A stretch of 64,000 bases of DNA, from positions 9,486,001 through 9,550,000 of the forward strand of contig CM060732.1 of assembly GCA_030704615.1 (NCBI GenBank), written 5' to 3'. Shown here piece after piece: positions 12,438 to 45,903 of this stretch (positions within the stretch are counted from its first letter, which is position 1; every line of letters begins with the position of its first letter). Under the pieces are notes generated by a model. It did not search any database. It worked only from the letters and a program-made list of their open reading frames with translations, and was not told the DNA's origin. This stretch comes from Takakia lepidozioides (Eukaryota > Plantae > Bryophyta). A program made the translations under genes and the position numbers.

Positions 12438-12531
12438 CTAACCCCACCCATGAGCAATATGACAAAATCAACTTCATGTTTATATTTCCATATACTCTCA
12501 TATTACACATACATACATATGAATTGCACAA

Positions 12532-13257
12532 TGTCGCGGCCCTTTGCTTTGAGGGCAGGGGGGTCGGGACACAAGAGGGGCTGCCCCTGTGGTAGGGGCA
12601 GTCGCAACAATAGGTAGGGGGGCTGAAGCACCCTTGAGGGCCCAAGGCACTCAAGGAGGCGAAGGCACTTACTAGGTGGAGCCCCGCGCACCGGGTTGCG
12701 GTGGGGGTGGTTCCACGAGGGGTGGTGGTAGCTTAGTGGGTCTTAGTGGGGGTGACATATGACTCACCATGGGGCGGAGACCTTGTGGTAGGAGTCGTGG
12801 GGAGTCTTGGGACTCATCACGGTCCATTGGGGCCGTGGTGGGTGAGCCAAGATTCACCGCGACTCATCACCGGGAGTCAAGGATCTTCGTGGTGGTTCGC
12901 CATAAAAGGACGGTGTTGTTTGTGAAACCCCCGCGGACAGTCACAAAACTATATATAGGGAGTAGTAACCTCGAGAACGGTGCAAGCCCATTGGTGACCA
13001 AAAACTAGTGCGTAAGCGTGCGAGCTGGAAAGCGACCAAGGTGTGGGGAGCTATTCCGGACTGCCAACAACCAAAGGGAATTTTCACTAGGCCCAAAGTG
13101 AGTGAGGGTCTTGTGGAGGAGCAAAGGGGGACCGTTATGTCCCGGTGAACAGTCGAAGCTCCGAGTTGGCCCGGCGGCCAGTTTGGGAGTTAGGCACGCG
13201 CATCAAAGCGAGTAATTATGACTTGAAGAGGAGCTTACTGAAGTGATGTGCGCGACT
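12532..13257 (+). repeat. 5' LTR of Gypsy B
   Basis: Starts TGTCGC and ends GCGCGACT (terminal CA mutated); its last approximately 280 bp match 33073-33352; TATA-like TATATATAG at about 12950. Confidence 0.9.
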
Positions 13258-13259
13258 CT

Positions 13260-13271
13260 TCGTATCAGAGC
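13260..13271 (+). promoter_or_regulatory. Primer-binding site, initiator tRNA-Met type
   Basis: TCGTATCAGAGC, one mismatch to the canonical TGGTATCAGAGC, 2 nt after the LTR. Confidence 0.85.
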
Positions 13272-13405
13272 TTAGAGTTCAGTACGCGATCGTCCTTGAG
13301 ATTGGCCTCACCATGGGGTCGGGCAAGACAAAGTGAAAGCAGAACGGCCCAAAAGACAATGATCCTGGTGAGCTCGGTGGGGGCGACGTGTCACCGAAGC
13401 GGCAA

Positions 13406-14412
13406 ATGGAAGAGGTGATTTATGCTTATGAAAGCAAAGCCACTCAAGAACGGGAGGAATTTGGGGAGTCGGAGCCCGAGGACTTTCCAGAGGCTCCGCC
13501 AGACCAACAGATGCCTCCCATGCCAGCAGCCTTTTGAGAAGGGTTGTTGGCGCAGTTTGGCGAGACGTTGAAAGACGTGATGAGGGCGGCTAATGCCACT
13601 TCCACTAAGGCGAAGTTTAAGGTAAAGCCTAAGGAACCCGGCACCTTCGAGGGCGTCTGAAATCGGAAGACACTTAACACCTGGCTCTTGGAGCTGGAGC
13701 AGTACTTCCGGGCAGCCAAGTTGAGTGATGAGGATCGGGTGGAAGTGGCTCCTACCTATTTGAGAGGCTATGCTCAACAATGGTGGCAGAAACGCCTTCA
13801 TGACCAAGGTCCAAACCCAGAAACCTTGAGCTGGAGTAGGTTCAAGGAACTTATGAAAAGACAGTTTGTGCCCCTCAACGCGTCTTGGCTCGCCCGGGAC
13901 AAAATGAGGAATTTGAAGCAAACGGATGACATTCGGGGATATGTTCATGCTTTCAATGTGCTGTTGCTTGAAGTCACGGATATGGCGGAACCAGAAATGG
14001 TCTTCAACTTTGTAGCGGGACTGGCCCCATGGGCCAGGCGGAAGTTGGAAGAGAAGCCACCTAAGACTGTGAACGAGGCAATTGAAAGGGCTGAATGTGT
14101 CTCGGATGTCCCTAGGGGCGAAAGACAAGGCCGTACGGAGCTGAACCACAAGAAGGCCCGACGAGAGGGTGACTCCTTCCGACCGGAAAAGAAGTGGGAT
14201 AGGCCACGCGGCAACAATGACACATGGAAATCGAAGGGAGGACCTTCACACGTCAAAGCGGCACTTGGTGCTCCAAAAGAAAAATCAGGTGCGGCGGCTT
14301 ATGGTGGACAGAAGACGACCTTCGATGGAGTGTGCTTTAATTGCGGGGAGCCCGGGCACATGGCTAAGAAGTGCGCAAAACCCCGACAATTGAACATGAC
14401 TCAGGCGACCAC
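13406..14412 (+). pseudogene. gag: Gag of Gypsy B, interrupted by the CACTA insertion
   Basis: KPKEPGTFEG, WLLELEQYF, LRGYAQQWW, LKQTDDIRGYVHAF, zinc knuckle CFNCGEPGHMAKKC; two in-frame stops upstream of 13688. Confidence 0.92.
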
Positions 14413-15009
14413 CACTAGTACAAATTAACGTTTTTATGACTACGGGTGATATAAACCTTGGTTACCATGACTATATAGGTGACTACAGAGTGACGAAACC
14501 CATTGTTGGACGAAATTTAATATATTGTAATCTAATGAAGTCATACATATTACTACATGACTAGGAGCCACGGTAAAACATTGTTGACCAAGAACAGAGG
14601 CTTGGTTTATATAATTAGTAGTCATATGCACTACTACACGTCAACAAGTGCTACATAAGCTTATGACTAAATGACTACACCATTACTACACATTGATGAC
14701 ATGCCATAGAAGCTTATGACTACATGACTACATGGGTTTCACAGCTCTGTTTATATGCGACATCACTACACGTGGCATCTTAAGGCATATACATGAATGG
14801 GTTCATCCATTGGATGACCTCATCCATCTATCTTTAATAAAGCACTTGAGTCATTGGATGACACAAAGTGCAAAAAGTTAAAAAATTCAAAAAGTTTTTT
14901 TAGGGTTGCCCACGTTCAGCCGTGAACAGAGGGCTGGAACTTAGCCTCCTTTTGTCTCCCGTGCTACGATCAGTTTTGTTTTCTTAGTATCGAGCCGAAG
15001 CAGCGACAA

Positions 15010-15945
15010 CTTGTGTCATGGAATGCCATGATCGCATGATATGCAATACAGGGGTGTGAGATAGAGGCTTTGAGACCTATTCTTGAGCAAATGATGTAGG
15101 AAGGGCGAGGATATGCACATCAGGGGCATGGTATAGAGGCTTTGGAGACGTATGAGCAAATAATGTGGGAAGGGGTGAAGCCGGACCGGGTTGTGTTTGC
15201 AATGCGTGTGCGGGCCTAGCAGTCCTGGAAAAGGGTAAAAGGTCCATGGTGCCATTGTCAAATTTGGAATTGTACCCGATGTCATTCTGGACAATACCCT
15301 CGGGGACATGTATGCCAAATGTGGCAGTATTGAGGATACAAATGGAGTGTTTGAGAATATGGCTGAACGAAATGTCGTGTCCTGGAGTGTGATGATCGCT
15401 GGATAATCCCCAGCATGGATGCGGGATGGAGGCATTGGAGACCTATGAGCAAACGATGCGGGAAGGGGTAAAGCCAGACCCAGTCACGTTCGTTTGTATA
15501 TGCAATGCGTGTGCGAGCCTGGCAACCCTGAAAAAGGGCAAAGGTGACATCATCAGAGCTAGAATTGTACCCGACATCATTCTGAACAATACACTCGTGG
15601 ACATGTATGCGAAATGTGGGTGCATCGAGGATGCGAAGGGAGTTTTCAACAGTATGGCTGAACGAGCCCGACCACATCACGTTTGATGGCATTTGCAATG
15701 CATGTGCAAGCCTAGCAGCCCTGGAAAAGGGCAAAGAGATCCATGGTGACTTGTTAGAGCTGGAATCGTACCCGATGTCATTCTGAATAGTACTCTCGTG
15801 GACATGTATGCAAAATGTGGGTGCATCGAGGATGCAAAGGGAGTGTTCAATAGTATGGCTGAACGAGATGTGGTGTCGTAGAGTGCGATGATTGCAGGAT
15901 ATGCACAGCAAGGGCGTGGGATGGAGGCTTTGGAGACCTATGAGC
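15010..15945 (+). pseudogene. PLS-class pentatricopeptide repeat fragments
   Basis: Repeated NTLVDMYAKCGCIEDAKGVFNSMAE, EALETYEQ..EGVKPD.VTFVCICNACASL; many stops and frameshifts. Confidence 0.92.
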
Positions 15946-16513
15946 ACCTTCTTCAACACATTTCAGCCTGTTTTCCTTGTTATCAGAGTCGTCCCTAAAA
16001 TTTCAGGTTGAATTCTGCAAGTTAGCTCTTTGGTGCAAAAAAGTGAAGGCCTGTTGGAAGCGCAAGTCAGCATATGAACTAGTGTGATAAGTAGGGTTAG
16101 GGTGTTTGCTGGAACAAATCTAGGCTGTCATTGTCAGCTGCTAGGAGCAAGGCAAGGATGTGTGCATGATTTGTGCAAAGGCAGAGATAGCTGAAGGAGC
16201 AGGGATAGAGAGTGGGTCCAGATTCATCCAAAAGGGCCAGATTTCAAGCACAAGATTACTTATGATTCCCTGTCATTTGTGTTATTCAAAGCACTTACAA
16301 GGCACAGTGGGGAAGACATCATCCATTTCAACTTCAGTTTCTTGCTGTTTGTGGGTGTGACCACTACTAATGGACAGACTTTACTTACTGCAGGATGGGA
16401 GGATATGGAAGAAGAGACTGGCAGCAAGTGCCAGACAGAGGGTTGAATTTACCAGTACCATGCGAGATAATGATCATACCTTGTTCTATAGCAATGTTCC
16501 TCATCGTCAATGC

Positions 16514-16830
16514 TGTCAAGTTATTTTACCACTAGTGTGAAACTAGCTAGGAAATAGCTAGCTTTTACATATTGACATTTGGGATCGGCCCAAGTGTCAA
16601 TCCAGGGGTCAAGGCAGATTTAGGCCCTGGAGTGGTTATCTTCACGGCAAGCGCGGGAGGCTCATCTTTCTCGAGTTGAGCCTCACCGCGCCTAGCTATG
16701 GCGCCGTAGTGTGGATTCCCCATGGCGTGGGGTGCACTTGGCTTGACTTGTATTTGAGTGATGAGGTTATATATGCACGAGTTTATGCTTCAGATTTGTG
16801 AGCTCGTGCTTGTATTCTTCTTCTTTATCA
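16514..16830 (+). repeat. Repeat A1 (317 bp; 3' part of the LTR)
   Basis: Matches 27633-27949; I see one mismatch (GGATCGG versus GGATTGG). Confidence 0.95.
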
Positions 16831-16842
16831 CTCGAGAAAGAT
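16830..16842 (+). promoter_or_regulatory. Putative self-priming PBS
   Basis: ACTCGAGAAAGAT is the exact reverse complement of 16664-16676 (ATCTTTCTCGAGT) within repeat A; no TGG-started tRNA PBS is present. Confidence 0.75.
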
Positions 16843-18259
16843 CAACTCGTATCTGTGAGTGCCAGATACGAGTTAGTTGTAGCACTTGTGGTTTTTGCTT
16901 GAGAATGAGAGAAACCAAGTTGTTATGCAAGGAGCACCGTGGAGCTCTTAGTTGTTAGAAGCGGAGGCGATGTGGGTTACGAGGTGGTAGACCTTGGCAT
17001 TCGATCTTCAGCTTCAGAGATGAAAGCACCATGCTGCAGGTAATTCCAGAGCACCTTGATGGTTCCAGATTGTGTACATGCATGAGCAAGCACGATTGGG
17101 AAGAGGACCAGTCAAGAGCAGGTTATAGTGGCTTTGGTGGCAAAGCTGAGAACTGGACTTGGGAATGCGAGCTTTCATTGTGTGAAGGATTGCAAGACCA
17201 AGCGAAAGGGCTGATTTTGCTTGGGGCAAATCAGTGCACTTTGTGGAGTATGGTGAGATTGGGTTTCAATCTCGAGCTTCAGCATTGAGAGGGCTCTTGT
17301 CATGGCAAGAGCAGGGTTGGAACATGAGCTAAGAGGTGCGGCAAGGCCATGGAATGTGCACCTAGGGTTTCAGAGCTTGGAAGAAGAGCTCTTGCACCAC
17401 AAGAGAAGTGTCTTGTGGCTGGAAATGTAAGCCTTAGGGTTTCAGGAGCTTGGCAAAGGCTGTGGAGTGCTTAGTCTTGTCTTAGAGAGCATCAAGGAGC
17501 CAAGGAGCCAAGATAGGGGGCTGATATCTCTTGTGTGAAGAGGTTGCATGTGTGGAGCATGTATTCAGCTCATTGAAGCTTCCATCTTCAAGCTTGGAGG
17601 GCAAGCAAGGAAGAGGGGGCTGGTTTCCCTGTAGGGCATGTGGAGCATGCTTTCAGCCTGCTGAAGCTTGTATTTTCGGGTTTGTGGGTGCAAGAAATGA
17701 AGCAAAGGAGCTGATTCTCTTATGGTGAGAGTGGGGCATGTGTGGAGCATGCCTTCAGCCCATTGAGGCTCTTGTTTTCAAGCTTTAGAGAGCTAGAACG
17801 GAAGGTCTAGGGCTGGTTTCCACTTGGAGTGAAAGAAAAGCACTTGTAGGGCCTATGTGAGTTGGGGTTTCAACTTCAAGCTTGAAGGGAGCGCAACTCT
17901 TGAAGCAGCAGGTGTAGGGGGCTGGAATAGGCTCTAAGACAGATGCTATGGCCAAGGAGAGTGCTTGAATGAGTGCTCACAAGGGCTGGGAACCAGCAGG
18001 GCTTGGTTGTTTGCCATTGAGTTTAGTGGCGTGTTTGGGGAGGCTAAGTGAGAAAGAAGGCTTGGTTTGTGGCAACCACCTCATGGCTTAGGGCTACTAT
18101 GGTGGTGTGTGGGAGCCGAAAGAGCAAGAATACCTTGCTGATTTCCTCACAGCCGCCATAGCTCGGTGGAAAGAAGCCTAGAGTCCAAGAGACACAAACC
18201 CTAGCTTGGCGTGGCTAAACCCCTTGGAGAAATGGCTAAACTGCCAGAGCGGCCATGGA

Positions 18260-19200
18260 TGGGGCTGTGACGGGCTGTGCCCATGGCCTTTGGGGCTGTG
18301 ATGGGCTGTGACGGGCTGTGACAGGCTGTGCCCATGGCCTTTGGGGCTGTGATGGGCTGTGAGGGGCTGTGACAGGCCGTGCCTGAGGCCTTTGAGGCTG
18401 TGACAGGCTGTGCCCATGGCCTGTGGGGCTGTGACTGGCTGTGCCCAGTGGCCTGTGGGGCTGTGACGGGCTGTGAGGGGCTGTGACAGGCTATGCCCAT
18501 GGCCTTTGGGGCTGTGATGGGCTGTGAGGGGCTGTGATAGGCCGTGCCTGAGGCCTGTGGGGCTGTGACGGGCTGTGCGGGGCTGTGACAGGCTGTGCCC
18601 GTGGCCTTTGGGGCTGTGAGGGGCTGTGACAGGCTGTGCCTGAGGCCTTTGAGGCTGTGACGGGCTGTGAGGGGCTGTGACAGGCTGTGCCCATGGCCTT
18701 TGGGGCTGTGATGGGCTGTGAGGGGCTGTGATAGGCCGTGCCTGAGGCCTTTGAGGCTGTGACGGGCTGTGACAGGCCGTGCCTGAGGCCTTTGGGGCTG
18801 TGACGGGCTGTGAGGGGCTGTGACAGGCTGTGCCCAGTGGCCTGTGGGGCTGTGACGGGCTGTGCGGGGCTGTGACAGGCTGTGCCCAGTGGCCTGTGGG
18901 GCTGTGACGGGCTGTGAGGGGCTGTGACAGGCTGTGCCATGGCCTTGGGGCTGTGAGGGGCTGTGAGGGGCTGTGACAAGCCGTGCTTGAGGCCTTTGGG
19001 GCTGTGACGGGCTGTGAGGGGCTGTGTCAAGCCGTGCTTGAGGCCTTTGGGGCTGTGAGGGGCTGTGAGGGGCTGTGCGGGGCTGTGACGGGCTGTGACA
19101 GGCTGTGGCGAGCTGTGACGGGCTATGAGGGCTGTGACAGGCTGTGCCCAGTGGCCTGTGGGACTGTGACGGCTGTGACCAGTGAGCTGTGTGGGCCTGT
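18260..19200. repeat. About 10-bp-period GGCTGTG minisatellite in the 5' leader of element A
   Basis: Dozens of variants of GGGCTGTGAC/GGGCTGTGAG/AGGCTGTGCC. Confidence 0.97.
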
Positions 19201-20084
19201 GCTGGTCTGTGGTGGCCCGTGTTGACCTATGGACGGCCTGTGCTGACTTGTGGAGGCACTGGTGGACTGCCTAAGGACTGGCATATGGTCTGGAAGGCCG
19301 AATTTTGAAGCTCGTGGAGGGCGGTTTGAAGAGTATCTTCATGATATTCCCATGGTCATGCAAGTGAGGGAGAGAGGAGAGGAAGAGTGTTGGGATGAGG
19401 GCATGCTGGGGTTAGGCATTGCTTTAGCTTCTCTTCCTTGTAGTTTCCACCCTCTCATTAGGCCAAGACCTTTCCGTAGGTGGAGGCAAGAGTCAGTCCG
19501 GGTTTGGGCTGGGGTGTCCTTGCAGGAGCAACACCGTGGAGTTGTTTTTTGGTGTGGGGAGTTGTCGTTCTGATTTCTTGTGTTTGGATCCCCTCCATAC
19601 CTGCATGCTTGACTGTGCGCCATGCTAGTTTTGTTTGGGCGCTTGTTTTTATAGGTGATTGGTCCGGATTTGATCACCGGCCAGTCCCTAGAGCATGCTG
19701 TCGATGTGAGGCTGGGTGACACCAGCCAGCCCTCTTGGTTTCTCTCTGTGGTCAGGAGAACCAGCCACCATGTGGTCTAGGCTTGCTAGGTGGATGACCA
19801 TTCAGCCAACATTTCTAGCTTGCTTACCCATGGTAACTATTTAACCATACATACCATAACAGGTTCTCTACCCGGTTACCTTGGAGAGGGGGTTAGGGAC
19901 ATGTTCATGACCGGTTGAGTGTCAACACAGAGGTGCCACTAGTTGCTGGGGACAGTGCCGGTTCAAGCACTAGCGATACTAGTGGGTACACGAGACGAGG
20001 TGTGCGGTTTAGGCCACCTTCACCTCTTGTGTCTTCACGGAAGGTTCTGATTCGGATTGTGAATCAGGAGGACTCATACCGGCG

Positions 20085-21680
20085 GTGCAAGTTGTTTCTT
20101 TGCCATTGTTGTGGGACACAATGGAGGAGATGTATGGAGCTACCAAGGGGCCACGAAGGTACTCTGGGGCGGTGGGCACCATCGAGTTGGATGATTTTAT
20201 CCAAGAGTTTGATAGTTGGTGTGATTTGCAGCAAATGCGCAATCCACAACTATTTACGCCTTTCATGGCATGGAAGGGGTTATTTCAGCACCTTGAGGGG
20301 CCGCCTATGGATGATTATCATGAGTTCAGGCGGGGGCATGAGGTTGAGATCGAGGAGTGGAGGATGTACTGGTCACCCGACTATGTCTCCATCACTAGGG
20401 CACTAGAGCCACGAGGGCAGTGGCTACACCTGCCGCTGCACCGGCAGCTTCAGCAAGTAGTAGAGGGACAAAGGACTAGTGGTACAGTAGCTACGACGTC
20501 CACCCAAGCCACTACCGCACCAGCACTAGTACCCGTGCCTGCCTTCAACCCTGTTGTGGAGTTCTTCGAAGAGTTGAGAGGGAACTACCAAGGGGTGAGG
20601 ACAGAGAAGTTGCGGAGCTTGCAAGAGTTCCAACGGAAGCCGACCGAGAGCTTGGGGAGGCTTTCACTCGCATGAGGCGCTTGATAAATGTAACCCAAGG
20701 GGTTACGGAAGCTCAGGCAGTCCAATTCTGGTATGGGATATTGGACAAGGAGCTGAGGAGAAGGGTGCGGGATGCAACTCTCCTACAAGCGGCCCAACCC
20801 ACCTTAGCAAATGTGGTTTTTGCTGGCAGAGCGGATAGAGCTCAACATGGTGGAGGAACGAGTGGTCATGGTGGGATTTGCTAAGGAGACACCACGGGGT
20901 AGTGGTGCTCCTAGCCAACCACTACCTCAACGTGCTCAAGGCAACAAGGAGGCTGAGGTAAAGCTCAGGGAAGGGCAGAGAGGACCTCAGATGCAGGGGT
21001 CTCTCCCTTCATTTGCTGGCCAACAACGGGCGGATGTGGTGTGCTGGACATGTGGAGGACCCCATATCAAGAAGGATTGCCCAGAGGGAGGCAAAGGGTC
21101 GGCACATGCACAGCCTGCACAGTTGCAGTGTGGGCATTGTGGCAAGCACGGGCATGGAGAGGCCCAGTGTTATGGTTTGCATCCTGAGTTGCGCCCAGGC
21201 CAGTTCCAAGGGAACAATGGTGGCCGGGGGCGAGGTGGAGCAGCCCAGAGAGGACGAGGTGGCCAGCCACGAGGTGCAGGCCAAGGGCAAGCTCAACGTG
21301 GCCAAGGACGCGGAGGTCAGGGTGCTGACCAAGGCATGGCCAACCGGCTTCAGCAGCTAGAGCAGAGGCTCGCTGCTATGGCTACAGCTCAGGTGGTATC
21401 GGCTCTAAGGCCGGATGGTCCACCTCCTGCTCCTGAGGGAGGAGATATGGGAGGCATGGGATTCATGTGTGGAGCAGCACTACCACTAGTGCAGGTGGAG
21501 TCTGCTGCAACCGTGACTCGAGGAGCAGCACGAGTTCCTGAGCCACGAGGTGCAGAGGTGGAGTTGGATCCACAGCGTGGGGAGGCAAGCCGTCAGGCTA
21601 GGCTTCCTCAGTCATTCACATTGGCGGAGACAGTGTCGAGGCGGAGGTTACTATGCCATTGGGGAGAGCTACACGGGTAG
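20085..21680 (+). pseudogene. gag: Gag of element A (frameshifted)
   Basis: PRRYSG...LDDFIQEFDSW, LQEFQRKPTESL, knuckles CWTCGGPHIKKDC and CGHCGKHGHGEAQC, RGG-rich tract. Confidence 0.85.
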
Positions 21681-21989
21681 CACCACTACCTAGTGTTGCC
21701 AAGGCTGCGGCTGCTAGTGTGCTGCTAGGAGCGGCCACATCTGTATGTCAGGCTCCATTGTTCTCGGCTACCATGATTGCGACGCCGGGGGTAAAACCAG
21801 TTGAGGTGTTCAGGCTGGCAGCTACACTCTGTGAGAGTGGGGAGGTTACTTCATCTTCTGCGGAGATAGTGGGAGGTGTAGTGCCGGAGGGATCCTCGGA
21901 TTTGAGGGTCAAGACAACTACGGCGGCGCCATGGCAAGCTGCAGCTGCCAGGTTGGTGGAGCTGCCAGCTAGGCCAGCCATTGAGTGCG

Positions 21990-22420
21990 CCATGGTGACA
22001 CCTGGAGTTGTCATGTTAGACAACCAGGATGGCATTTTCTGTTTGAGTGGACCGGCATGCAAGAGGTACCGGCCACTGCGGGTCTTGTTGGACTCGGGAG
22101 CTCAGCCATTGATGCTGGGCAGAGCTGCTATTGCAGGCTTGGGCCTCACGGAGGCGGATATGGAGCCTTCTCCTTTCCAGATACAGACGTCTCTGGGAGG
22201 ATCGGAGCAGGCTCGGGGCATGACACGGCGTGAGTTGGCTATCAGACTACGGCCGGATCACCTATAGATGGCTCAGTGATGCGAGCCAAGGCCATTGTGA
22301 CAGACGCAGTCTCATACGATGTCCTGGTTGGTGGGGCAGTGTTGTACCCCATGGGCTTCACCCTGGATTTTTGGGAGGAGTCAGCTTCCTATAGGCCTGC
22401 ATGGCAGTCAGGGGAGGGCC
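21990..22420 (+). pseudogene. Aspartic protease of element A
   Basis: RVLLDSGAQ catalytic motif and downstream YDVLVGG. Confidence 0.85.
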
Positions 22421-22788
22421 AGCGTGTGCAGCTCCCTGTGACGTTCATAGGAGGAGTTGCGGTTGCCCAGCGAGGCAAGATGCCGACACTAGCAGCATTC
22501 ACAGTGGCAATGAGTTGGCCTAGAGAGTTGCTTGAGGGCAATGCTCATTCAGAGGATGTACCACCTCCGGGAGAGTAGGATGACATGTATGGTATGGCGG
22601 AGTTGCCTACCATGGTTGCTCAGACTCCATTGTGGGGCACGAGCAAGGATTTGCAGCGGGATGCTGATCGACGGGTGCAACAAGCCTGGGTGGAGGCTTT
22701 TGTACCGTCAGGAGAGGAGGAGAGTGTGGGGATTGCACCACAACCACCTCAATTGTCTCCATTGGACACCACACCTATTGTGTGGTAG

Positions 22789-23760
22789 TATCCGGATGAA
22801 GGCATTTGTCTTCTGGACTTGTTTGGCGGGATCAGCACCGGATTGGCTGCTGTGTTACAAGCAGGTGTACGAGTTCGGCGTTACTTGTATGTAGAGAGGG
22901 ATGAGACTGCACGACGCATTTCACTTTGCCATGTTGCTCAGTTGGTGCAGCGGTACCCTGAGTTGTTGTCGGTGTCTGCAATTCGTGGACATCAACAGGC
23001 CTTGCCAGCAGACATTTCGTTGTGGGGGCGCAGGATTTGGAGCGGGTTGGCTCCATTGATCTGGTAGTGGCAGGTTGGCCCTGCCAAGGGCATTCATCAG
23101 CGGGGCATGGCAATGGATTGCGAGACTCGAGGTCGGGTCTGTTTTGGGAGATGGTGCGGGTTTTGCGCCACTTGCAGCTTCATCAAGCTATATCTCCAGC
23201 ATACATCTTAGAGAATGTGCCACTGATGGGCGATTCTCGGACCAGGGTGATGGCCAGTGTGCATCAAGTCCGGTCGTGGCTTGGGTCAGCAGTGTTGCTA
23301 GACGCAGCTACAGTGGGGTCACGGGCTCATCGTCCACGGCTATGGTGGACTAACTTGATGCCACCCGCACTGCTCAAGCGTGCATTTGATGGGGTGCAGC
23401 GGCCAGCACATCTCACAGTGGATAACATTCTGGACACAGGGAGGCAGTCTCAAGCGTGAGACACGATGACCGTTCACCTTTGGCAGTGGTCAACAAGGTG
23501 GGTCAACCACGAGCAGCATTACCTACACTGCTCAGCTTCCCAGGATCGCATGCTTTCCAGGATAGTGGACCTGGCCTCCTGTGGGATGCTCAGTTGCAGC
23601 AGTTAGTGGAGCCTAATTCTGACGAGCGTGAGCGGGCAATGGGTTTTACCACTGGTACCACGGCGGTGTCGTCTCTTTCTGAGGCATCACGGCATCAAGT
23701 GTTGGGGCAAGCAATGGATCTCAATTGCTTGACATGGATTATCTGCTTGGCTTTGGCTGA
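22789..23760 (+). pseudogene. C5-cytosine DNA methyltransferase domain (DNMT3/DRM-like, canonical motif order) within pol
   Basis: Motif I LDLFGGIS (22813-22836), II YVERD, IV DLVVAGWPCQG (PC at 23079-23084), VI ILENV (23211), VIII AHRPRLWWTN, IX ERAMGF, X RHQVLGQAM; frameshifts near 23020 and 23455. Confidence 0.95.
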
Positions 23761-24179
23761 GCAACGCAGAGTGCGGAGTACACTTCCCTCAATGGTCTCT
23801 CTGCCTACCGAGACGGTACATGCAGTGAGTGGGGGCGAGCATGTGAGGACCGCGGGGTGCATGCATCCATGGCACACGTGGGAGGTGCTCGAGGTTCAGA
23901 GGGAGTTGGCAGCCAAGGCGGCTGTGATGGATGAGGTTGGGGATTCTTCTCGGGTTGAGGAGGTCCTCAAGGATGAGATGATGGGGCAGGATGAGGCCTT
24001 GTCATTGACTGAGCAGGCAGGGAGTACTGCTCAAGAGGTTGCAACATAGCAACCACTGGACGCGTCCTCTACCTCTAAGCCCACTGGACTTAAGGTTGCA
24101 ATTACGGAGGACAATTGGGAGCCTGACATTGGACCCATTGTCACCGGAGGAGAGAGACGACGTATACGGCAATTCCTGA

Positions 24180-25545
24180 GGGCTTACAAGAATTGCTTTG
24201 CCTTCAGTTTGAAGGACTTGAGAGCACTGAAGGGTCAAGAGATCCGTATTGAGTTGGCCACTGACACGCCAATCTTTCGGAGACCCTATAGATACAGTGA
24301 CATGGAGAGGTCTTTGATTCAGATGAGGACTCAAGATCTCTGGGAGGCAGGTTTGGTGGAGCTCTCTGGGGGAGAGTATGCTTCAGCCACAGTGATGCCA
24401 GCCAAGAAGGATGTCTATGGCAATTAGACGGAGAGACGTATGTGCGGTGATTACCGGCCTGTAAATCGTCAGACCAAGTCCGATAAGTATGCCATGCCAA
24501 CACCAGATGAGATCTTTGATGCCATCGGGCATGCTAAGGCCTTTAGCACTTTGGATTTACGATCCGGATATCACCAGTTGCCAATCAAGGAGGCGGACAA
24601 GCAAAAGATGGCATTCTGGGGGATCAATGAGCACGGCAAGGATTGCCTATATCAGTGGCGGTTCTTACCATTTGGGCTTAAGAATGCTCCTGCAGAGTTT
24701 CAGAGAGTCATGGATAGGATTCTAGCAGGGGTGGACTTTGCTCGGTGCTACATAGATGACATTATCATCTTTAGTGTTACGATGGAGGAGCATGAGAGAC
24801 ACCTTCAGGTGGTATTGGAGCGCTTGAGAGCGCACGGATTGAAGTTGCATCCGGGAAGTGCAAGTTTTTCCACAACCAGATTGAGTATCTGGGTCACATG
24901 ATATATCCTGGAGGATTGGGGGTACAGCAGACTAAGGTAGAGGCCATTGCCCAAATTCCACGCCCCACGGATGTGAGCCGAGTTCGAGCTTTCATGGGGT
25001 TGGCAAACTATTATAGACGGTTTGTCAAGGGATTTAGCACCATTGCAAAGGCTCTAACCAAGCTGACCAAGGTGGACCAGGAGTGGCAGTGGGAAGATGA
25101 GCAGGAACGAGCTTTTCAAGAGCTCAAGGCGAGGTTGACCTCGGCGCCTATCTTGAGACGACCTATCAGGGGGCGTCCCTTTCAGCTGCATACGGATTGG
25201 AGCATGCTGGGGCTTGGAGCGGTGCTCACACAGGTGGATGATGAGGGAAGAGAGTTCGTAGTGGCTTATGCTAGCCGCTTGAACAACGCTGCAGAATCTA
25301 AGTATAGCTCATATGAGGGGGAGTGCTTAGCTGCAGTGTGGGCCGTGGCACACTTCAGGTGCTATCTATACGACAATCTTTTCAGCCTTGTCATGGATCA
25401 CCAGCCACGCAAGTGGTTGATGGAGTCAGACAAGCTTACGGGGAAGCTTGCACGGTGGGCACTTATACTCCAGGAGTATGACTTTCAGGTTGTGCATCGA
25501 CCGGGTTTGGTCAATCGGGATGCGGATGGATCGAGTCGCAATCCA
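24180..25545 (+). pseudogene. pol: Reverse transcriptase and RNase H of element A
   Basis: RMCGDYRPVN, LDLRSGYHQ, PFGLKNAPAEFQR, YIDD; RNase H LHTDWS..GLGAVL, EGECLAAVWAV, RDADG; stop at 24425 and frameshift near 24855. Confidence 0.97.
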
Positions 25546-25929
25546 TGCATGAGCCAGCAGGATGACACTGGAGCTCGGTGGCATGGTGAGACGGACGAGG
25601 AGATGGTGCCGGGATGGCACGCATCTGCATTTTTGTGTATCTTGGCATCGGGAGGTCAGATTGGACCTACAACAGGGATGACTGTAGACGGAGTGTCTGA
25701 GGACCCTAAGGCTAGTGATGAGCTAGGTGGTGCCAGAGATATACATGAGGATTCGGCTGTGTTGGACTACCTCCACATGGGAGACACGGCAGCCATTGTG
25801 ACTGCCAGGGAGAGGGGTCGGATCCTGCAACGAGCCAAGAGGTTCAAGTGGGATGGGATACACCTACTTCAAGTGTGGGAGGATGGTCGGGTGAGGATTG
25901 TGCCTCACCCCACACAGCGTGCACGGTTA

Positions 25930-27182
25930 GTGCGGCATGCCCATGAGGAGTTGGGGCATTTTGGAGTGCGACGCACTCACAGTTTACTGCAGGGGCAGTA
26001 TTGGTGGCGTGGTATGCATACAGAGGTGCAACAGTTCGTGGCTAGGTGCATGGTGTGTGACAGGGTGCGTGCTTCATTCAACGCCCCTACACCACAGTTG
26101 CATCCTTTGCCAATCATGGGATTGGGCTACAGGTGGAGTCTTGACTTCGCAGGACCGTTGCCACTGACTATGCGCCACCACAGATATGTGTTGGTGATGG
26201 TGGAGCACTTCTCCAAGTGGATTGAGTTGGTTCCATTGCCTGACAAGGCTAGTGAGGGGGCTGCGTATGCATTCTTGGATCGTGTGCTTAGCCGATTTGG
26301 TGCTCCAGCTGAGGTACTCACGGACCAAGGGAGAGAGTTTTGGGGGAGTTTCAGGCTTTGTGTGATAAAGCCTTGATAGACCACCGCACCACTTCTCGGG
26401 ATCATCCTGAGGCCGATGGCTTAGCAGAGAGAGTTGTTCAAACGGTGAAGAGGGGTTTGCGCAAGTATGGCTTGCAGAAGGGACACCTAGGAGATTGGGA
26501 TCTTCAGGTTCCTTGGTTAGCCATGGGCTACAGGTTCAGCAAACAAGCATCACTTGCCTCCTTCTCACCATATTTCCTTCTCTTTGGCCGAGAGCCGGAT
26601 TTGCCTGCAGCCATTCGTAGGGACACTACTCAAGTCTTTAACCTTGACGATCCGGACGTGTGGGTACGTGCATGTGATCAGCATGCAGAGTTGTTCAAGA
26701 AAGTCATGCCCATGGCTTTTGAGAACCTTGCCATTGCACAGCACCGTGATACGTTGAGGTATGCCACTATACGTGGTGGAGGATATCGTCCTGGGGTTCG
26801 GAGGTTTAGCCCTGGTGACTATGTTTATTTGCAGCAGACTGCTCCTACGACTCTAGATGTTACTGCAGGGCGTGTTATTCTGAGGGTTCGAGAGGTGTTG
26901 CCCTCAGGGGTCCTGATCTTGGAGGGTCGGGATGGCATGACTTGGAAGGACCATGTGCGTAATTGTGCGCCATGTCACCTTCCCAATGTCGATGGCAGAG
27001 TTGACCCAAACTTGGCAGTGGTACCTGCAGGTTTGAGGTGCATGCTCTGTGGGTCTGCCAAAGGGGCAGCCACCATGCTGGTGTGTGATCGATGCTCAAG
27101 GGGTTGGCATATGGGATGCTTGACACCACCTCTTGAGAAGGTTCCTGACGGAGATTGGTTGTGTCCACACTGCTTGGGATAG
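25930..27182 (+). pseudogene. DDE integrase with C-terminal PHD finger, element A
   Basis: HEELGH...CMVC zinc-binding domain; WSLDFAGP, LTDQGREF, AERVVQ; C4HC3 CMLC..CDRC..WHMGC..WLCPHC at about 27039-27173; frameshift near 26340. Confidence 0.95.
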
Positions 27183-27431
27183 TGGCAGTGGACATGACTG
27201 GAGGCAGCTAACAAGACATGGGAGGCCAAGCTCATATGAGTCAATACATGAGATCCCAAGCTCAAGTTCACAGGTTGCAAGACGGCGACTAATGATGGGG
27301 CAACTCTTGCACCCGGCCTCTTGATCTATCGAGTTTGAGTGTAGTAGGGATAGTGGTGGAGGACTTAGTGAGGCTATGGTCACTATCACATCTTGTGGCT
27401 ACCTGGACTTAGAGGGACCTAAGCACCAGCT

Positions 27432-27440
27432 AGGGGGGCG
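27432..27440 (+). promoter_or_regulatory. Polypurine tract of element A
   Basis: AGGGGGGCG followed by AT and then TG at 27443. Confidence 0.7.
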
Positions 27441-27442
27441 AT

Positions 27443-27949
27443 TGTGTGGACTAGTGACTGCCATAGTGGGCAGCATAGTGGCAGCCTAGTGACTGACTAG
27501 TTGTAGCCTAGTGGTTGGACTAGTGGCTGGACTAGTGGTGGACTAGTGGTATACTAGTGTATGGTGTGCACATGTGTTGTGTGGTTTTGGACAGCGATGT
27601 AGTTGTGTAGCGATATGTATGCGCACGACAGCTGTCAAGTTATTTTACCACTAGTGTGAAACTAGCTAGGAAATAGCTAGCTTTTACATATTGACATTTG
27701 GGATTGGCCCAAGTGTCAATCCAGGGGTCAAGGCAGATTTAGGCCCTGGAGTGGTTATCTTCACGGCAAGCGCGGGAGGCTCATCTTTCTCGAGTTGAGC
27801 CTCACCGCGCCTAGCTATGGCGCCGTAGTGTGGATTCCCCATGGCGTGGGGTGCACTTGGCTTGACTTGTATTTGAGTGATGAGGTTATATATGCACGAG
27901 TTTATGCTTCAGATTTGTGAGCTCGTGCTTGTATTCTTCTTCTTTATCA
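27443..27949 (+). repeat. Complete LTR of element A (B1 + GC + A2, 507 bp, TG...CA)
   Basis: Begins TG 2 nt after the PPT and ends TTTATCA; palindrome GACAGCTGTC at 27627-27636. Confidence 0.85.
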
Positions 27950-28138
27950 TTGTGTGGACTAGTGACTGCCATAGTGGGCAGCATAGTGGCAGCCTAGTGA
28001 CTGACTAGTTGTAGCCTAGTGGTTGGACTAGTGGCTGGACTAGTGGTGGACTAGTGGTATACTAGTGTGTGGTGTGCACATGTGTTGTGTGGTTTTGGAC
28101 AGCGATGTAGTTGTGTAGCGATATGTATGCGCACGACA
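27949..28138 (+). repeat. Repeat B2 (190 bp)
   Basis: Matches 27441-27630 with one visible mismatch; ends GCACGACA. Confidence 0.95.
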
Positions 28139-28348
28139 ATGCCGTGGCCCTTCCGGCGAGACATTTTTGCTTCTAGCGCACAGCGCTCCTGGACATGTAT
28201 TGCACAAATCTTTGGAATAAGATGCATCATGTTGTTGTTAATGGTGTAGGGTTTTGGTTGTGAATATTTGTGTATGAGAAATATACGATACGATGCTAGG
28301 GATATAGTGCAGTCGATGTCATTTTACTGCCCAAATGACAAGTCAAGA

Positions 28349-28889
28349 GCCGGAGCGCAGATCGATCCGGCTGAAATACTTCGCTCCTGCCAACCGATCG
28401 AAAAGGTCGTCGATCCTTGGCAAAGGGTACCGGTTTTTGATAGTCACCTTATTCAAAGCCCTGTAATCGACACACATCCGCAGCGTCCCATCCTTCTTGT
28501 CTGCGAATAGCACCGGGGCTCCGTAAGGTGACTTACTCGGCCGGATGTACCCCTTTGACATTAGATCTTTGAGCTGAGTCTTCAGCTCGACCAACTCTTT
28601 GTGGCTCAACCGGTAGGGCACCTTGGCAGGCGGTTCCGATCCCGGTATCACCTCAATCTTGTGGTCAACTCCTCTTCGCGGTGGCAAGCCGCTTGGTAAA
28701 TCCTCCGACATCACATCCTGGTATTTCTCCAAAATCCCCTTGATCCAATCTGGGCTCGGCTCCCCATCGCCTTCTCTCTTCACTTCTCTAATGTAAAGCA
28801 AAAACTGGGGCTCGTGTGCCTCCTCCACGGCCCACTCCCTTACTGACAGAAGGTTTATTCGCCCTCCCACGGGTTTGGGCGTTTCCGAC
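28349..28889 (-). pseudogene. pol: Inverted Gypsy pol (RT N-terminal) fragment of family B
   Basis: Homologous to 32471-33010: [27 protein letters not shown]...[11 protein letters not shown]. Confidence 0.92.
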
Positions 28890-29912
28890 TGAGGCATAGG
28901 TAGTTTTGCTTTAACAAGGATAGGTTGAAGTTAGGACAGATGTGTTGCTAGTATAATAGCTAACTTTCAAGAAATCGATGAACTGAGATTGATTGAATAG
29001 ATAAGTGCGGGCTTTGATTGTTATGGTTGTGTTAGGAGTGTGCTTAGGCCCTTCAGCTTTTAGCACTGTGTTTATTGCCCTTTAAACATCTGTTCTGTAC
29101 ATGCAGGTTGAGAGTGGGGAGGAGCTGCTGACACACAGTAGTACCCACAGTTGTGGAGTAGAGGCACAAACGGCCCTCAAACATTGTCAGAGGCCAAGAG
29201 ATAACGCGACAGAGAGACATGTGCAGGGCTATCCACAGCTTATGGAGTACCAGCATGGAAACATGTAAGAGACTCATTGTGGTTTATTCCTTGACACAAG
29301 ATCAAGGACAATGTGGTGAGCGCACCTTCTTCAACCTTTTGGCAGTCTGTTTTGCCCTCTCATCATTAGGGTTGGGGTATTTGCTGGAAGAACTTCACGC
29401 TGTCAGTATGAACTGAAGGACTGTCAGGCAGAGATAACTGAAAGACTAGGGATACAGGTCCAGATTCATCCAAGAGGACCGGGTTTTAGATGTAAGATTA
29501 CTTCTGATTCCCTGTGGATCAATAGCTACAAGAAATCTGCGTGGGTAGATGGTCAACTGGAAACATAAGCGGCAGCAGCACAATTGATAGAACAAGGCAC
29601 TGCTATTGAAGGCACCTTCAACACATTTCAGCCTGTTTTCCCATGTTATCAGAGTCGTACCTAAATTTTTGTGTTGAATTCTGCAAGTTAGCTGGTTGAG
29701 TGAACCTTTGATTGTTTGGAGTGATTGACATGATACGGCCAACATGTGACAACAGGGAAGTTTCCAGAAACAGGTAACAGAGACGCTCAGAGAAGTTGTG
29801 GAATGGATACTTTTCTGACCACAGTCATCAATGATGGGACAATTGAGGCAAAAAGGTGAATACCTGTGGGATTACAGAGAGTAGCAGATGCAATAGGCCA
29901 ATGACCTAGGAT

Positions 29913-30496
29913 CAAATGATGGGGGAAGGGGTGAAGCCCAACCACATCATGTTTGTGTGCATTTGCAATGCATGTGCAAGCCTGGAAGCCCTGGAAAAGG
30001 GCAAAGAGGTCCATAGTGACATTGTCAGAGCTAGATTGTAATTCTGAAGTACAATACCCTGGTGGATATGTATCCAAAATGTGGGTGCATCAAGGATGCA
30101 AAGGGAGTGTTCGATAGTATGGCTGAACAAGATATGGTGTCATGGAATGCCATGCTTGCAGGATATGCACAGCAGGGGCGCGAGATGGAGGCAAGACCTA
30201 TGAGCACATGATGGGGGAAGGGGTGAAGTGTAACCAGATCACGTTTGTGTGTTTGCAATGCTTGTGCAAGCCTGGGCAGCCCTGGAAAAGAGCAAAGAGA
30301 TGCATGGTGACATCATCAAATCTGGAATTGCACCTGTCATTCTGAACACTGCCCTGGTGGACATGTATGCCAAATGTGGGTGCATTGAGGATGCAAATGG
30401 AGTGTTCGACAGTATGGCTGAATGACATGTGGTATTGTGGAGTGATGATTGCAGGATATGCATAGCAAGGGCGCGGGATGGAGGCTTTGGAGACTT
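29913..30496 (+). pseudogene. Second block of PLS-class PPR fragments
   Basis: Same motifs as 15010-15945 (EGVKPNHIMFVCICNACASL, LVDMYAKCGCIEDA); frameshifted. Confidence 0.9.
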
Positions 30497-31054
30497 AGGG
30501 GCAAATGACAAGAAGTTGTGGAATGATTACTTTTCTGACCCCAGTCAATGGTGGGACGACTGAGGCAAAAAGGTGAATGCCTGTTACATTTCAGAGAGTA
30601 GCAGACGCAATATCAGCATAGGAACTAGTGTGATAAGCTGAGTTGGGTGTTTCCTAGACAAATATAGGCTGCTGCTAGCAACAATGCAAGGATGAATGCA
30701 TCATTTGTGCATAGGCATGGATACCTGAAGGAGCAGAGATAGAGTGTGGGTCCAGATTCATCCAAGGGGGTCAGATTTCAAGCACAAGATTACCTATGAT
30801 TCCCTGTGGATCAATAGCTACAAGAAACCTGCATGGGTAGAATCTGATGGTCTATTCCGTGGGACTCAATCTGTCACTGAAGTCTTGCATTATGAGGATC
30901 AGAAATGCTTGGCAGCTTACCTGCACGAGGCCTTGACCTTTAGGCAATCCCCTGAGCAATAGTTGCGTTTGGGCTGCTATTGTATGTAGCTGGTTGCTAG
31001 TCCAGCACTTCTAAGGAGTTTTGATATATACTTCTATGTATTTGGGAGTTGGGA

Positions 31055-31987: not shown

Positions 31988-33068
31988 GGAGCTGTCCGAA
32001 GATTCCATCAGCCGCTTGGTGGAAGCGGTGGTTGCCAAGACTTGCAAGGTAGACAACTACTCTTGTGAGTTGTATCAGGAGACTGGCCCCTTGCGTAAAT
32101 GAAGTCAGTTACTCTTCGTGAGTGGGATAATTTCCGGAACTAACGTGTCGCTGTTGGTGGACACAAGAGCGCCGCACTCCTTCATGACACCGGCAACGAC
32201 ACGGAAGCTGGGGCTCCCGACAAGTGATGTGGGGGCCTCTATTGAAGTGCGTTCTGTCAAAGGAGAACCACAACTGGCGACAAGGTTGGCATTCGATGTT
32301 CCTCTTCAGTTGGGGAGTTGGGATGGACGTGAGAACTTCACCATTTGCGAGATCAATGGAGTGGATCTCATTTTGGGGATGACCTTTTTGAGCAAATCCG
32401 GAGCGGTCATAGATGGCCACAAGAGAGTAGTCACGCTACCGTGTGGGGATGGTGGCAAAGTTTTACGGGTGTCGGAAACGCCCAACCGAGTGGGAGGGCA
32501 AATAAACTTGCTGACAGCAAAGGAGTGGGCCGTGGAGGAGCCACACGAACCCCAGTTTTTGCTTTACGTAAAACAAGTGGAAAGAGAAGTCGATAGGGAG
32601 CCGAGCCCAGATTGGATCAATGGGATCCTGGAGAAATATCAGGATGTGATGCCGGAGGATTTACCAAGCGGCTTGCCACCGTGAAGAGGAGTTGACCACA
32701 AGATAGAAGTGATACCGGGATCGGAGCCGCCTGCCAAGGCGGCCTACCGGTTGAGCCACAGAGAGTTGGTCGAACTGAAGGCCCAGCTCAAGGATCTAAT
32801 GTCAAAGGGGTACATCCAGCCGAGTATGTCACCTTACGGAGCCCCGGTGCTATTCGCAGACAAGAAGGATGGGACGCTGCGGATGTGTGTCAATTACAGG
32901 GCTCTGAATAAGGTGACTATAAAAAACCGGTACCCTTTGCCAAGGATCGACGACCTCTTCGATCGGTTGGCAGGAGCAAAGTATTTCAGCCAGATCGATT
33001 TGCGCTCAGATTACCATCAAATCCGAGTGGCGGAAGGAGATGAGAAGAAAACCGCGTGCAAGACGAGA
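31988..33068 (+). pseudogene. pol: Protease and 5' RT of Gypsy B, truncated by deletion into the 3' LTR
   Basis: LLVDTRA (DTG variant), [34 protein letters not shown]; CGAGA microhomology at the deletion junction. Confidence 0.93.
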
Positions 33069-33072
33069 TAAG

Positions 33073-33352
33073 GGTGCAAGCCCGTTGGTGACAAAAAAAC
33101 TAGTGAGTAAGCGTGTGAGCCGGAAAGCGACCAAGGTGTGGGGAGCTGTTCCGGACTGCCAACAACCAAAGGGAATTTCCACTAGGCCCAAAGTGAGCGA
33201 TGGTCTTGTGGAGGAGCAAAGGGGGACCGTTATGTCCCAGTGAGCAGCCGAAGCTCCGAGTTGGCCCGGCGGCCAGTTTGAGAGTTAGGCGCGCGTATCA
33301 AAGCGAGTAACTATGACTTAAAGGGGAGCTTACCGAAGTGAGGTGCGCGACA
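33073..33352 (+). repeat. Truncated 3' LTR of Gypsy B
   Basis: Matches 12979-13257; ends GCGACA followed by the TSD. Confidence 0.92.
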
Positions 33353-33839: not shown

Positions 33840-36114
33840 ATACCACATGTCGAATGTGGGGTCAGACAGTTTGTCCGGTTTGGGGAAGCTCCACATGTCC
33901 CTTGTACTTTGGGAACCATTCCAGATTTGGAGCCACCGGGTCTGTCCAACCACCCAGCATATTCGTAAGCGCCAAACACCACAAAAACGAGTTGTTGCCA
34001 CCACAATTTGGTTAAGAATGTATCACCTTTTCTGTTGCATCCACATAGGATGTGGCTAGACGATGGAGCTTCTCCAATGTCATCGTGGGCTTCAGAGCAC
34101 GGGAGTAGTGCTTCCCCACCTCTACCAGAAAGTCGGCACCAAGGGCGGGATCAGCTATGGCCACGTACTTTACCATCCGCGACTTGTACTTTATACGGGC
34201 CTACGATTCGAGTGTCGGGAGGGTTAGATTCTTCTCCTTTGACTCCATGTAGAACCTCCGCGCATGTGCCAAATCCTGCTGAATTTTCGTCTGTCAAGAA
34301 TGCGCACATAAGATTAGAGATCCTGCTCAACACTTTTTCTTCTATTGGGGGAGGAGAGACACATTAGTTCAACAAAACAGTGAGGAGCTTTATCCGAAAT
34401 ATGTAGTCCACCATGGCATCCATGCTCAGCCTATACCAGGTTCTGTCTGCCTTTGCCTCCGACTTGCGCAGGAGGTCGGCACTGAGCGAATTGGCAAACT
34501 CTTGCACCCCCTGCTTCCCGACATCCTTCACTCGGAAGAGCATATGGGACAAGTTGGTGGCAATAAAGGCATTCTCAGTCACCCTGCAATGCCACATTTC
34601 CATCAAACAATACTGAAATGGGAATTTTCAACAAATATGAGGATTCGCAATGAAATGACTTACAATCGGATGGGTCCAAAAGCAAGAGGCGTTGTAACTT
34701 ACGAGTTGATGTCCGCCATTGCAGCTTTGAGAAGACTGCGATCTTTGGGCCCCGCAACCTTCAGCACAACACATTCCACGGCAAAATGCCAATTGAGGTC
34801 GTTGGGGTGGGCTTCGGCTATGTGCTCCATCCATGCCAGGAGGCGATGATTGCCGTCCCACACGTAAAACATCTTACCAGACAAGTGCTGGAAAAGAGGA
34901 TCAATAGCAATCGTTCTCTCGAACTCCTCATTTCGCCTTTGCCAATGGGGACCCCATTTGTCCACCTCATCGGAAGTGTGGGCACGGGAAGCTCCGTGGT
35001 CATTCTCAATGGAAACGTAAAACGCGGCAGACCCCATTCGATATCCATCCCGGAAAGAGAATTTCAGCTTGTCGATATCGCCTGGGAGGGCAGGTCTCAC
35101 CACCTGCAATGACACCAAGCGGCAAAGGGGAATCCGAAGCTTGGCCGGGTACACCATGCCCCCCAGCACCCTGCCAATGTTGCTGTGGGTTGCCTCCAAC
35201 ATCTTGGCAGCGGCCAACTTCATATCCGCCTCCGACATGACGTCTGCTGCAAAGGAGTTCTCCGGCAGCCCACCAGGACCGCCAAATCCAGCCTGTATGT
35301 TGCGGGTTTGGGGCCTGGGGATGTCCGGGAGGATGTCATCCTGGTCAGAAAGCTCCCTGTCGTCCTCCTCAACATGGTTAGCCACCGGCGAAACCACCTC
35401 GAGCACTCTCCCCGTCTGTACTGCCCTCTCCCCGGCTTCACCTGGCACAATCCGTGCTCTTTCTGGTGTTCTTTCCTCTCCTCCACTCTCCACCGTATGG
35501 GTAATTGCAGGGGCTGCTCTTGCCCGCGATGGTCTAACCGGTGTGTTACTGCCTCTTTGTGGTGTCTTGGAGGGATCCACCGTCTCTGTGCGTCCCTCGC
35601 TTACATTGGCATCTGTCATTTGGGCACCCCTGGCCTCTTCAGTGGCCTTTTCTCTTTCCTCCTGGCTAGCATTCTGTCCCGCCTGTTCTTTTGCCCTCTC
35701 TTTTGCCCTCTCACGGGCTTTCTGTTTCTTACTAGGGCTAGCAGCAGGGGAGCCCTCTAGGACGACCACCTTTGATTGAGGCGAACTGACACCCTCGCGC
35801 GCACTGCTTACTCCCCCCTCCGCAGCTCGTGACGGCTCTCTCGCCGGGGATTGCATGTGCATAGCTTTCTTCTTCTTCTTTGCGTGGGCGGGCCCTACTG
35901 CATGTGCATCAACAACCTCCATTGCCAGATCTGTTGTCCTCACGTCCTCACGCCCTTCACCTGCCATGCCGCCTGCACCAACCTCCCCAATGCCTATTCT
36001 GTCGTACTCTCGCTGCAGGTCCTCCCGTCCACCAACAAAAGGTTTAAGTTTGCCCTCTCGCCCCAAGTTGGGGGATTCAAACATGCGATGAGTTGGAGCT
36101 GTCGATGATACCAC
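33840..36114 (-). CDS. Spliced gene with low-complexity N-terminus and a ParB/Sulfiredoxin-like domain; 3'-truncated
   Basis: 471-aa open exon 34699-36114 with VRP..DIDKL..SF..GY...FYVWDGNHRLLAW (DGNHR at 34843-34857); GT donor after ADINS; further exons near 34590-34400, 34200-34030 and 33970-33845. Confidence 0.7.
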
Positions 36115-39177: not shown

Positions 39178-39179
39178 TT

Positions 39180-39196
39180 TGGCGACCATACTGGGG
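39180..39196 (+). promoter_or_regulatory. PBS of element C (probably tRNA-Arg type)
   Basis: TGGCGACCATACTGGGG, 2 nt after the LTR; conserved in the copy at 60318-60334 (minus strand). Confidence 0.8.
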
Positions 39197-42138: not shown

Positions 42139-42141
42139 CTA

Positions 42142-45800: not shown

Positions 45801-45903
45801 ATGTTGAAACGCAGAAGCAGTCACGGGCTGCGCTAGTGATACCAACGGAGTATGGAGCACTTGTCGCTAGGCCGAGCATATATGACCAGGGCAGGCAGTA
45901 CAA

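Follow-up and report, generated by a model that had tools for sequence, protein, structure and literature searches.

Why would a retrotransposon of a land plant carry a C5 cytosine methyltransferase, and is such an element new? The first-pass annotation of a 64-kb stretch of Takakia lepidozioides DNA (the window, to which all coordinates refer) had described a methyltransferase that sits between protease and reverse transcriptase (RT) and whose motifs are not permuted. We confirm a C5 cytosine methyltransferase (DNMT) domain at 22789-23773 (+), between protease and RT, and its motifs do run from I to X:

22813-22842 (+), motif I, LDLFGGISTG
22888-22905 (+), motif II, YVERDE
23058-23090 (+), motif IV, DLVVAGWPCQG, with the PC pair
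23202-23219 (+), motif VI, YILENV, with ENV
23322-23354 (+), motif VIII, RAHRPRLWWTN
23624-23647 (+), ERERAMGF
23690-23719 (+), motif X, RHQVLGQAMD

A search with PF00145, proposed along with that description, matched the middle piece of the domain (E 1.7e-13). The family profile matches all three pieces (E 1e-73, 3e-51 and 5e-31) and found no further match within the 64-kb window. The pieces lie in three frames, with frameshifts near 23022 and 23453 and an in-frame stop directly upstream of the domain (22786-22788). Because the stop and the two frameshifts split the motifs in this way, the window copy is unable to make the enzyme. The breaks look private to this copy. At the upstream stop, 661,388 of 666,503 units of summed depth in run X1 read otherwise than the window copy, and length differences occur at both frameshifts (70,105 of 243,756 and 27,399 of 150,605 of the depth), counts that are likely too low because short contigs end at such places.

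The domain had been called DNMT3/DRM-like; the DNMT3 part of that label stands, while an affinity to DRM does not. A profile of 20 sequences compared with solved structures places DNMT3A/B at the top with 94 bits, the best DRM-type chain at 61 and HhaI at 40. With a relative (P0002, from Calypogeia) as query, the solved structures again rank in the order DNMT3A/B, DRM-type chains, bacterial enzymes. DNMT3A/B also appear in all top fold matches listed for a structure model of another relative (P0011; pLDDT 79; E 5e-17). The window domain is 66-75% identical to bryophyte-type element domains, 43% to a Klebsormidium protein (P0072) and 24% to all four of the DRMs compared. Given that identity and motifs that are not circularly permuted, membership in DRM was rejected. 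In a tree of element domains, the four DRMs and 12 short methylases, the window domain is nested among element domains with a support of 0.99, and the bryophyte grouping is as in the RT tree. Since this tree held no host DNMT3, it is the ranking of PDB structures, by sequence and by modelled fold, that indicates DNMT3 as the closest class.

The domain belongs to a decayed 11.6-kb copy of a Gypsy retrotransposon (16514-28138) laid out as A1-coding-B1-GC-A2-B2, with ATGC duplicated on both flanks. The coding region is ordered Gag-protease-DNMT, a conserved in-frame stop, then RT-RNase H-integrase-PHD:

16510-16513 (+), left target-site duplication ATGC, the same 4 bases following the right end
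16514-16830 (+), repeat A1, element start TGTC, 99.7% identical to A2
16664-16676 (+), predicted RNA 5' end and self-primer, a 13-bp complement of 16830-16842 (fold z -7.5; predicted start site)
16830-16842 (+), predicted self-priming primer-binding site directly 3' of A1
18261-19178 (+), 10/51-bp tandem array in the long leader
20088-21635 (+), Gag with zinc knuckles, broken, 39-44% identical to Gag of P0014, P0427, P0481 and P0482
21716-22450 (+), aspartic protease region, LLDSGA at 22085-22102, weak PF13650 match (E 0.012), frameshift near 22260
22789-23773 (+), DNMT3-like C5 cytosine methyltransferase domain, three frames
24047-24055 (+), TAG stop shared across the family, with CAA CCA after it; predicted readthrough site that parts ORF1 (Gag-PR-DNMT) from RT-RH-INT-PHD
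24089-24868 (+), RT, PF00078 (E 8e-27), YIDD at 24749-24760, stop at 24425-24427, frameshift near 24852
25174-25479 (+), RNase H, PF17917 (E 9.5e-33)
25909-26440 (+), DDE integrase, H2C2 finger and core, PF17921 and PF00665, frameshift near 26339
27039-27173 (+), C-terminal PHD finger, PF00628 (E 4.2e-11)
27432-27441 (+), polypurine tract, before B1 and not before A2; a G-tract precedes B in related loci
27442-27630 (+), repeat B1, ending GACA
27625-27638 (no strand), internal B1/A2 joint, palindrome GACA-GC-TGTC, predicted integrase attachment site; joint also in L007, L008 and L074
27633-27949 (+), repeat A2
27950-28138 (+), repeat B2, element end GACA, 99% identical to B1
28139-28142 (+), right target-site duplication ATGC

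Degenerate PPR repeats flank the element at 15000-16000 and 29900-30800 and are 75-83% similar to each other. Ty3-type fragments (Gag, RT) of another element lie at 28343-28930 (-), 32103-33351 and 13000-14428. A second Gypsy, at about 37900-52300, is nearly open for Gag, protease, RT, RNase H and integrase and is without a methylase; it has long direct repeats, 96-bp arrays, a CpG observed/expected ratio of 0.17 and an extra ORF region (47091-50589) with no Pfam match in the part scanned. Part of this second element is repeated in inverted orientation at 60199-64000. Both Gypsy families contain related tandem arrays with a 10-bp unit of the GGCTGTG type (18261-19178, 38370-38543, 45836-46307 and 60919-61182). 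A DUF4216 match and fragments near it, at 7403-8221 and 11300-12700, resemble a CACTA-type transposon. The long ORFs at 34699-36141 (-), 52408-53325 and 55554-58904 (-) gave no Pfam match where scanned and are possibly related to DNA transposons. A short DRM-like fragment at 3129-3263 (-) runs from motif X to motif I with 71-77% identity to DRM proteins; it enters a frameshift and looks like a piece of a pseudogene. Together with the PPR repeats, this fragment indicates a land-plant host.

The order of the repeats recurs in related loci, completely in L044, L067 and L074 and partially in L007, L008 and L049, with ends TGTC and GACA as in the window. An exact 4-bp duplication is found in six of eight evaluable loci; one has a single mismatch and one a damaged left end. 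The B1/A2 joint reads CA-NN-TG in all six loci that retain it, and GACA-GC-TGTC is common to window and metagenome repeats that can otherwise barely be aligned. Perfect pairing of at least 10 bp occurs at the matching place in 11 of 28 A1 copies of related loci, and 18 of 20 rows other than B2 have a G-tract before B. Quite probably, then, reverse transcription would be self-primed after A1 and plus-strand synthesis primed at the purine tract before B1, yielding a linear cDNA. Because the primer site follows A1 and the purine tract precedes B1, the predicted LTR of this cDNA is B-GC-A, and the A2/B2 boundary would therefore be a tail-to-head LTR joint. Four of the six distinct A2/B2 joints are tight, and in the other two there are 16-21 additional bases that look like primer-site or purine-tract sequence. 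End-joined circles carry leftover bases at their joints. A circle opened at the upstream internal palindrome would give exactly the observed A-coding-B-A-B layout, and the accessible text of one report has foamy-virus integrase cutting palindromic circle junctions (PMC1180852).

No circle would be needed for this layout if reverse transcription included one more template switch, leaving linear ends at the B/A joint that integrase would then trim in the normal way. Linear cDNA is, after all, the normal substrate of integrase, and the GC spacer is reminiscent of the two bases that 3' processing takes off. However, the primer site and purine tract set B-GC-A as the LTR, which leaves A2/B2 as its tail-to-head joint, ragged in two of six cases. 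Three further loci (L024, L041 and L056) have an A-coding-B form with intact 4-bp duplications, as expected from one-LTR circles, although recombination between B1 and B2 or assembly collapse could produce them as well. We consider the linear route rather unlikely. The ends, the internal palindrome and the ragged joints point instead, by sequence and by analogy, to a two-LTR circle that the DDE integrase opens, an account that we favour with some reserve. The cDNA would be end-joined into the circle and the integrase would open it at GACA-GC-TGTC, leaving A-coding-B-A-B, TG...CA ends and the 4-bp duplication.

The methylase had been placed inside Pol. However, a family-wide stop separates Gag-protease-DNMT from RT, though in the same frame, and because it precedes RT, Pol in the strict sense does not include the methylase, whose output would match that of Gag. 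At 24045-24056, around the TAG CAA CCA of the window, no variant reaches 3% in 1,086 contigs of run X1, while flanking bases vary; run X8 contributed no contigs here. Direct alignment over the site gives TAG (36) or TAA (20) followed by CAA C in all 56 loci, and TAG/TAA CAA C is the last stop before RT in 50 of the 55 loci that span DNMT and RT. These two domains are in one frame in 38 of the 55, over several spacer lengths, and in 16 of those 38 the stop is the sole break between them. Predicted proteins show the same division. Those of Marchantia and Calypogeia terminate about 90 residues past motif X, intron-free proteins of 1,280-1,331 aa cover Gag to DNMT and end at the stop, and the closest RT-INT-PHD proteins begin just before RT.

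CAR-YYA is the readthrough context of TMV (PMC2754532, in its accessible text). Among the 5,275 stop triplets of the window, 9 are followed by this context, and the site at 24047 matches UAG-CAR-YYA exactly and in frame, here with a stop that would part Gag-PR-DNMT from RT. The metagenome family has CAA CCC ATG after the stop, an imperfect CAR-YYA whose ATG could allow reinitiation. The RNA fold 3' of the stop is modest in the window (z -2.55). TAA stands in 17 of 46 distinct copies; as these are scattered over a star-like tree, in the manner of decay, they are no proof that the AG is dispensable. Our preferred reading is that the stop is likely leaky and read through at a low rate, which would put the DNMT at the level of Gag and RT and integrase at a few percent of it.

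RT and integrase might instead come from a spliced RNA or by reinitiation, the TAG being a splice acceptor or a plain stop. Ogre-type elements are an example of such expression. The metagenome family has an acceptor-like TTTGCR-TAG and its ATG two codons past the stop, a Coleochaete protein (P0127) was called as a separate RT-INT-PHD ORF, and the TAA copies look like decay. In the window family, by contrast, there is no ATG at that place and the context upstream of the stop is purine-rich. Moreover, the CAA C after the stop is the part conserved between distant hosts, the frame is maintained over several spacer lengths, and the X1 joints that were listed show no common skip. We find splicing or reinitiation improbable. 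Under any reading of the stop, leaky readthrough included, the methylase is by its sequence on the Gag frame.

The proposed land-plant lineage carrying the domain is borne out, with relatives in several bryophytes and the domain conserved much like RT. A domain search returned 134 longer proteins; the named hosts among the 120 listed are Marchantia, Calypogeia, Riccia, Sphagnum and Klebsormidium, with no fern, lycophyte, hornwort or seed-plant name among them. Relatives of the element occur in Marchantia, Calypogeia, Sphagnum, Closterium and chlorophytes, the family profile collected 513 clusters (E below 1e-30), and a search of viral contigs gave one distant locus. The first-pass annotation had allowed that related elements might lack the domain, but 68 of 120 listed RT/integrase relatives have it in the same protein (before RT in 23, after RT in 43 and without an RT match in 2). 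It is absent from 8, and the other 44 begin within 200 aa of RT, where its presence cannot be judged. In a large subclade (P0165-P0239, P0215 and P0228) that includes Chlamydomonas eustigma, the methylase follows RT and often has GWEC or GFEC for GWPC; many of these methylases are missed by precomputed Pfam tables. The RT tree, with 118 of 126 sequences kept, one outgroup and search-selected taxa only, joins the window element to Marchantia elements as its sister group (0.99) and places Coleochaete nearby.

Run X1 of the host species has 75,151 contigs that map on 6.35 kb of the element (21600-27950 covered), and the family is very abundant there. Summed contig depth per bin, which is not copy number, is 0.71-1.19 million over the domain and 0.89-1.38 million over RT and integrase. 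Against 80 related metagenome loci, pN of the domain is 0.21, far below a saturated pS of 0.75; it is near that of RT (0.17) and integrase (0.16), with protease at 0.31, Gag at 0.33 and the linker at 0.44. This is the check on neutral evolution that had been suggested, and the between-host ratio is rough because synonymous sites are saturated. Among young copies the ratio is 0.6-0.9, like that of dead copies. Most of the 80 loci belong to one family (46 of the 57 tested are distinct); they had been chosen by their motif IV/VIII patterns and come from short-read assembly, which could distort repeats. These comparisons support a DNMT3-type domain that is fixed in a land-plant Gypsy lineage and under purifying selection.

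Taken together, our results suggest an abundant land-plant Gypsy element, related to KnitGypsy-Dnmt3 of Klebsormidium nitens, whose DNMT3-like enzyme ends ORF1, is probably packaged together with Gag and probably methylates new cDNA; we hold this overall picture to be fairly likely. By sequence and by analogy, methylation of new cDNA is the most likely role. Indirect support for it comes from intact catalytic residues, selection on the domain and a position in ORF1 that would load many enzymes per particle. De Mendoza et al. proposed such a role for SymbioDIRS-Dnmt3 (PMC5890265, in its accessible main text). The cDNA or the circle would receive 5mC from the enzyme, probably in CG context, and might then pass as host DNA or be protected until insertion; on this last step we regard the chances as even. 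Neither CpG nor CHG depletion is specific to the element; the CpG observed/expected ratio is 0.47-0.62 here and 0.17 in the neighbouring Gypsy without the domain. Of 17 transitions scored in the window copy itself, 9 are at CG, 5 at CHG and 3 at CHH, which fits silencing by the host.

A different role can be considered, in which the domain is a DNA- or chromatin-binding module acting with the PHD finger, or an RNA methylase. The accessible text on KnitGypsy-Dnmt3 reports no methylation by its domain in yeast, a result that its authors called inconclusive (PMC5890265), motif IV reads GWEC and not GWPC in many distant relatives, and the loss of CpG is not special. Yet the catalytic cysteine, ENV and the motif VIII arginine are retained in the window copy and in most relatives (loci selected on two of these motifs), the modelled fold matches DNMT3, and SymbioDIRS-Dnmt3 enzymes do methylate CG in yeast according to the same text. 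A binding or RNA-directed role therefore seems doubtful to us. That a host DRM or DNMT3 fragment was captured just once or recently and evolves neutrally, as the broken window copy and the DRM-like fragment at 3129-3263 might suggest, is rejected as extremely improbable, given the many domain-bearing relatives, the 24% identity to DRM, the nesting among element domains (0.99), an RT tree with Marchantia elements as sister and then Coleochaete-level relatives, family reads that differ from the window copy at its breaks, and pN far below pS.

With cDNA methylation as the preferred role, a bolder version can be put forward, although we think it unlikely as a whole. In a green-plant-wide lineage, integration would proceed from a two-LTR circle through a DDE integrase acting at the internal palindrome, and DNMT3, loaded at coat-protein stoichiometry by the leaky stop, would methylate the circle, possibly marking CAGCTG so that one site is cut and the other survives. 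If the circle model is true, nature would here provide a DDE integrase that inserts circular DNA, a form long regarded as a dead end, and methylases would be tied to circular intermediates in both tyrosine-recombinase (YR) and DDE retroelements. With so many copies in the host, a de novo methylase encoded by the element could influence the host methylome as well.

Several known systems share parts of this design. SymbioDIRS-Dnmt3 of Symbiodinium has, in the accessible text of PMC5890265, DNMT3 in Pol and A-coding-B-A-B repeats but a tyrosine recombinase, whereas the window element has a DDE integrase, a protease and a 4-bp target duplication. A DIRS, PAT or Ngaro element was accordingly rejected: rve and H2C2 are present, there is no YR in the 12 ORFs scanned, and the 4-bp duplication is there. 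EpiLTRs and DAM-LTRs are LTR elements with methyltransferase and chromatin-reader domains; in the accessible part of that preprint (bioRxiv 10.64898/2026.05.21.726589) these are a DNMT4-related DNMT, DAM and a chromodomain, in contrast to DNMT3-like plus PHD here. Self-priming of the Tcn1/Tf1 kind is a further parallel; the accessible text of Neumann et al. 2019 (PMC6317226) has it as predicted for Tcn1. That paper also covers Phygy and Selgy, Gypsy lineages of non-seed plants, and the words methyltransferase and PHD are absent from its main text.

The closest system is KnitGypsy-Dnmt3, for which de Mendoza et al. 2018 describe, in the accessible text of PMC5890265, an unpermuted DNMT3-type domain in a Gypsy polyprotein under purifying selection, with DIRS-like A-coding-B-A-B repeats as in the window element; PHD, termini, target duplication, self-priming and a circle model are not mentioned in that text. 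The claim of a new system is therefore not upheld, since such a family has already been described, and the preprint cited above names "streptophytes (Gypsy-DNMT3)" as known. A streptophyte Gypsy-DNMT3 is mentioned there and in PMC12344493, and the tree figures of both may include bryophyte copies. The accessible texts of PMC12344493, PMC11982613 and PMC6453930 hold nothing on land-plant members, and a literature search that ran outside subscription papers and the main supplement of PMC5890265 turned up no publication dealing with such members, with the conserved stop or with the attachment site. What was not found in print is thus the conserved, likely leaky stop and the circle-type ends; the methylase-bearing Gypsy itself is already known. 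The land-plant family moves such elements from an algal curiosity to tractable hosts, where Marchantia relatives have open Gag-PR-DNMT frames (P0014 of Marchantia, like P0002 of Calypogeia, is naturally open) and where one could ask what a retrotransposon gains from an enzyme that its host uses for silencing.

With its protease, RT, RNase H and DDE integrase, the window element has the Gypsy set of the KnitGypsy-Dnmt3 type together with a DNMT3-like domain. Klebsormidium P0072, which is not confirmed as a named copy of that study, reads protease-DNMT-RT-RH-INT in the order of the window, with the domain 43% identical. The two sets of elements fall in the same broad clade in both RT and DNMT trees and in different subclades, the RT tree having one outgroup and search-selected taxa. 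Their hosts differ, a green alga in one case and a land plant with very many copies in the other. In KnitGypsy-Dnmt3 (accessible text of PMC5890265) and P0072, DNMT and RT share one ORF, and in other algal-type proteins too the methylase is continuous with RT, unlike in the window family. Because a family-wide stop interrupts that ORF, the element is a variant rather than a plain member of the KnitGypsy-Dnmt3 type.
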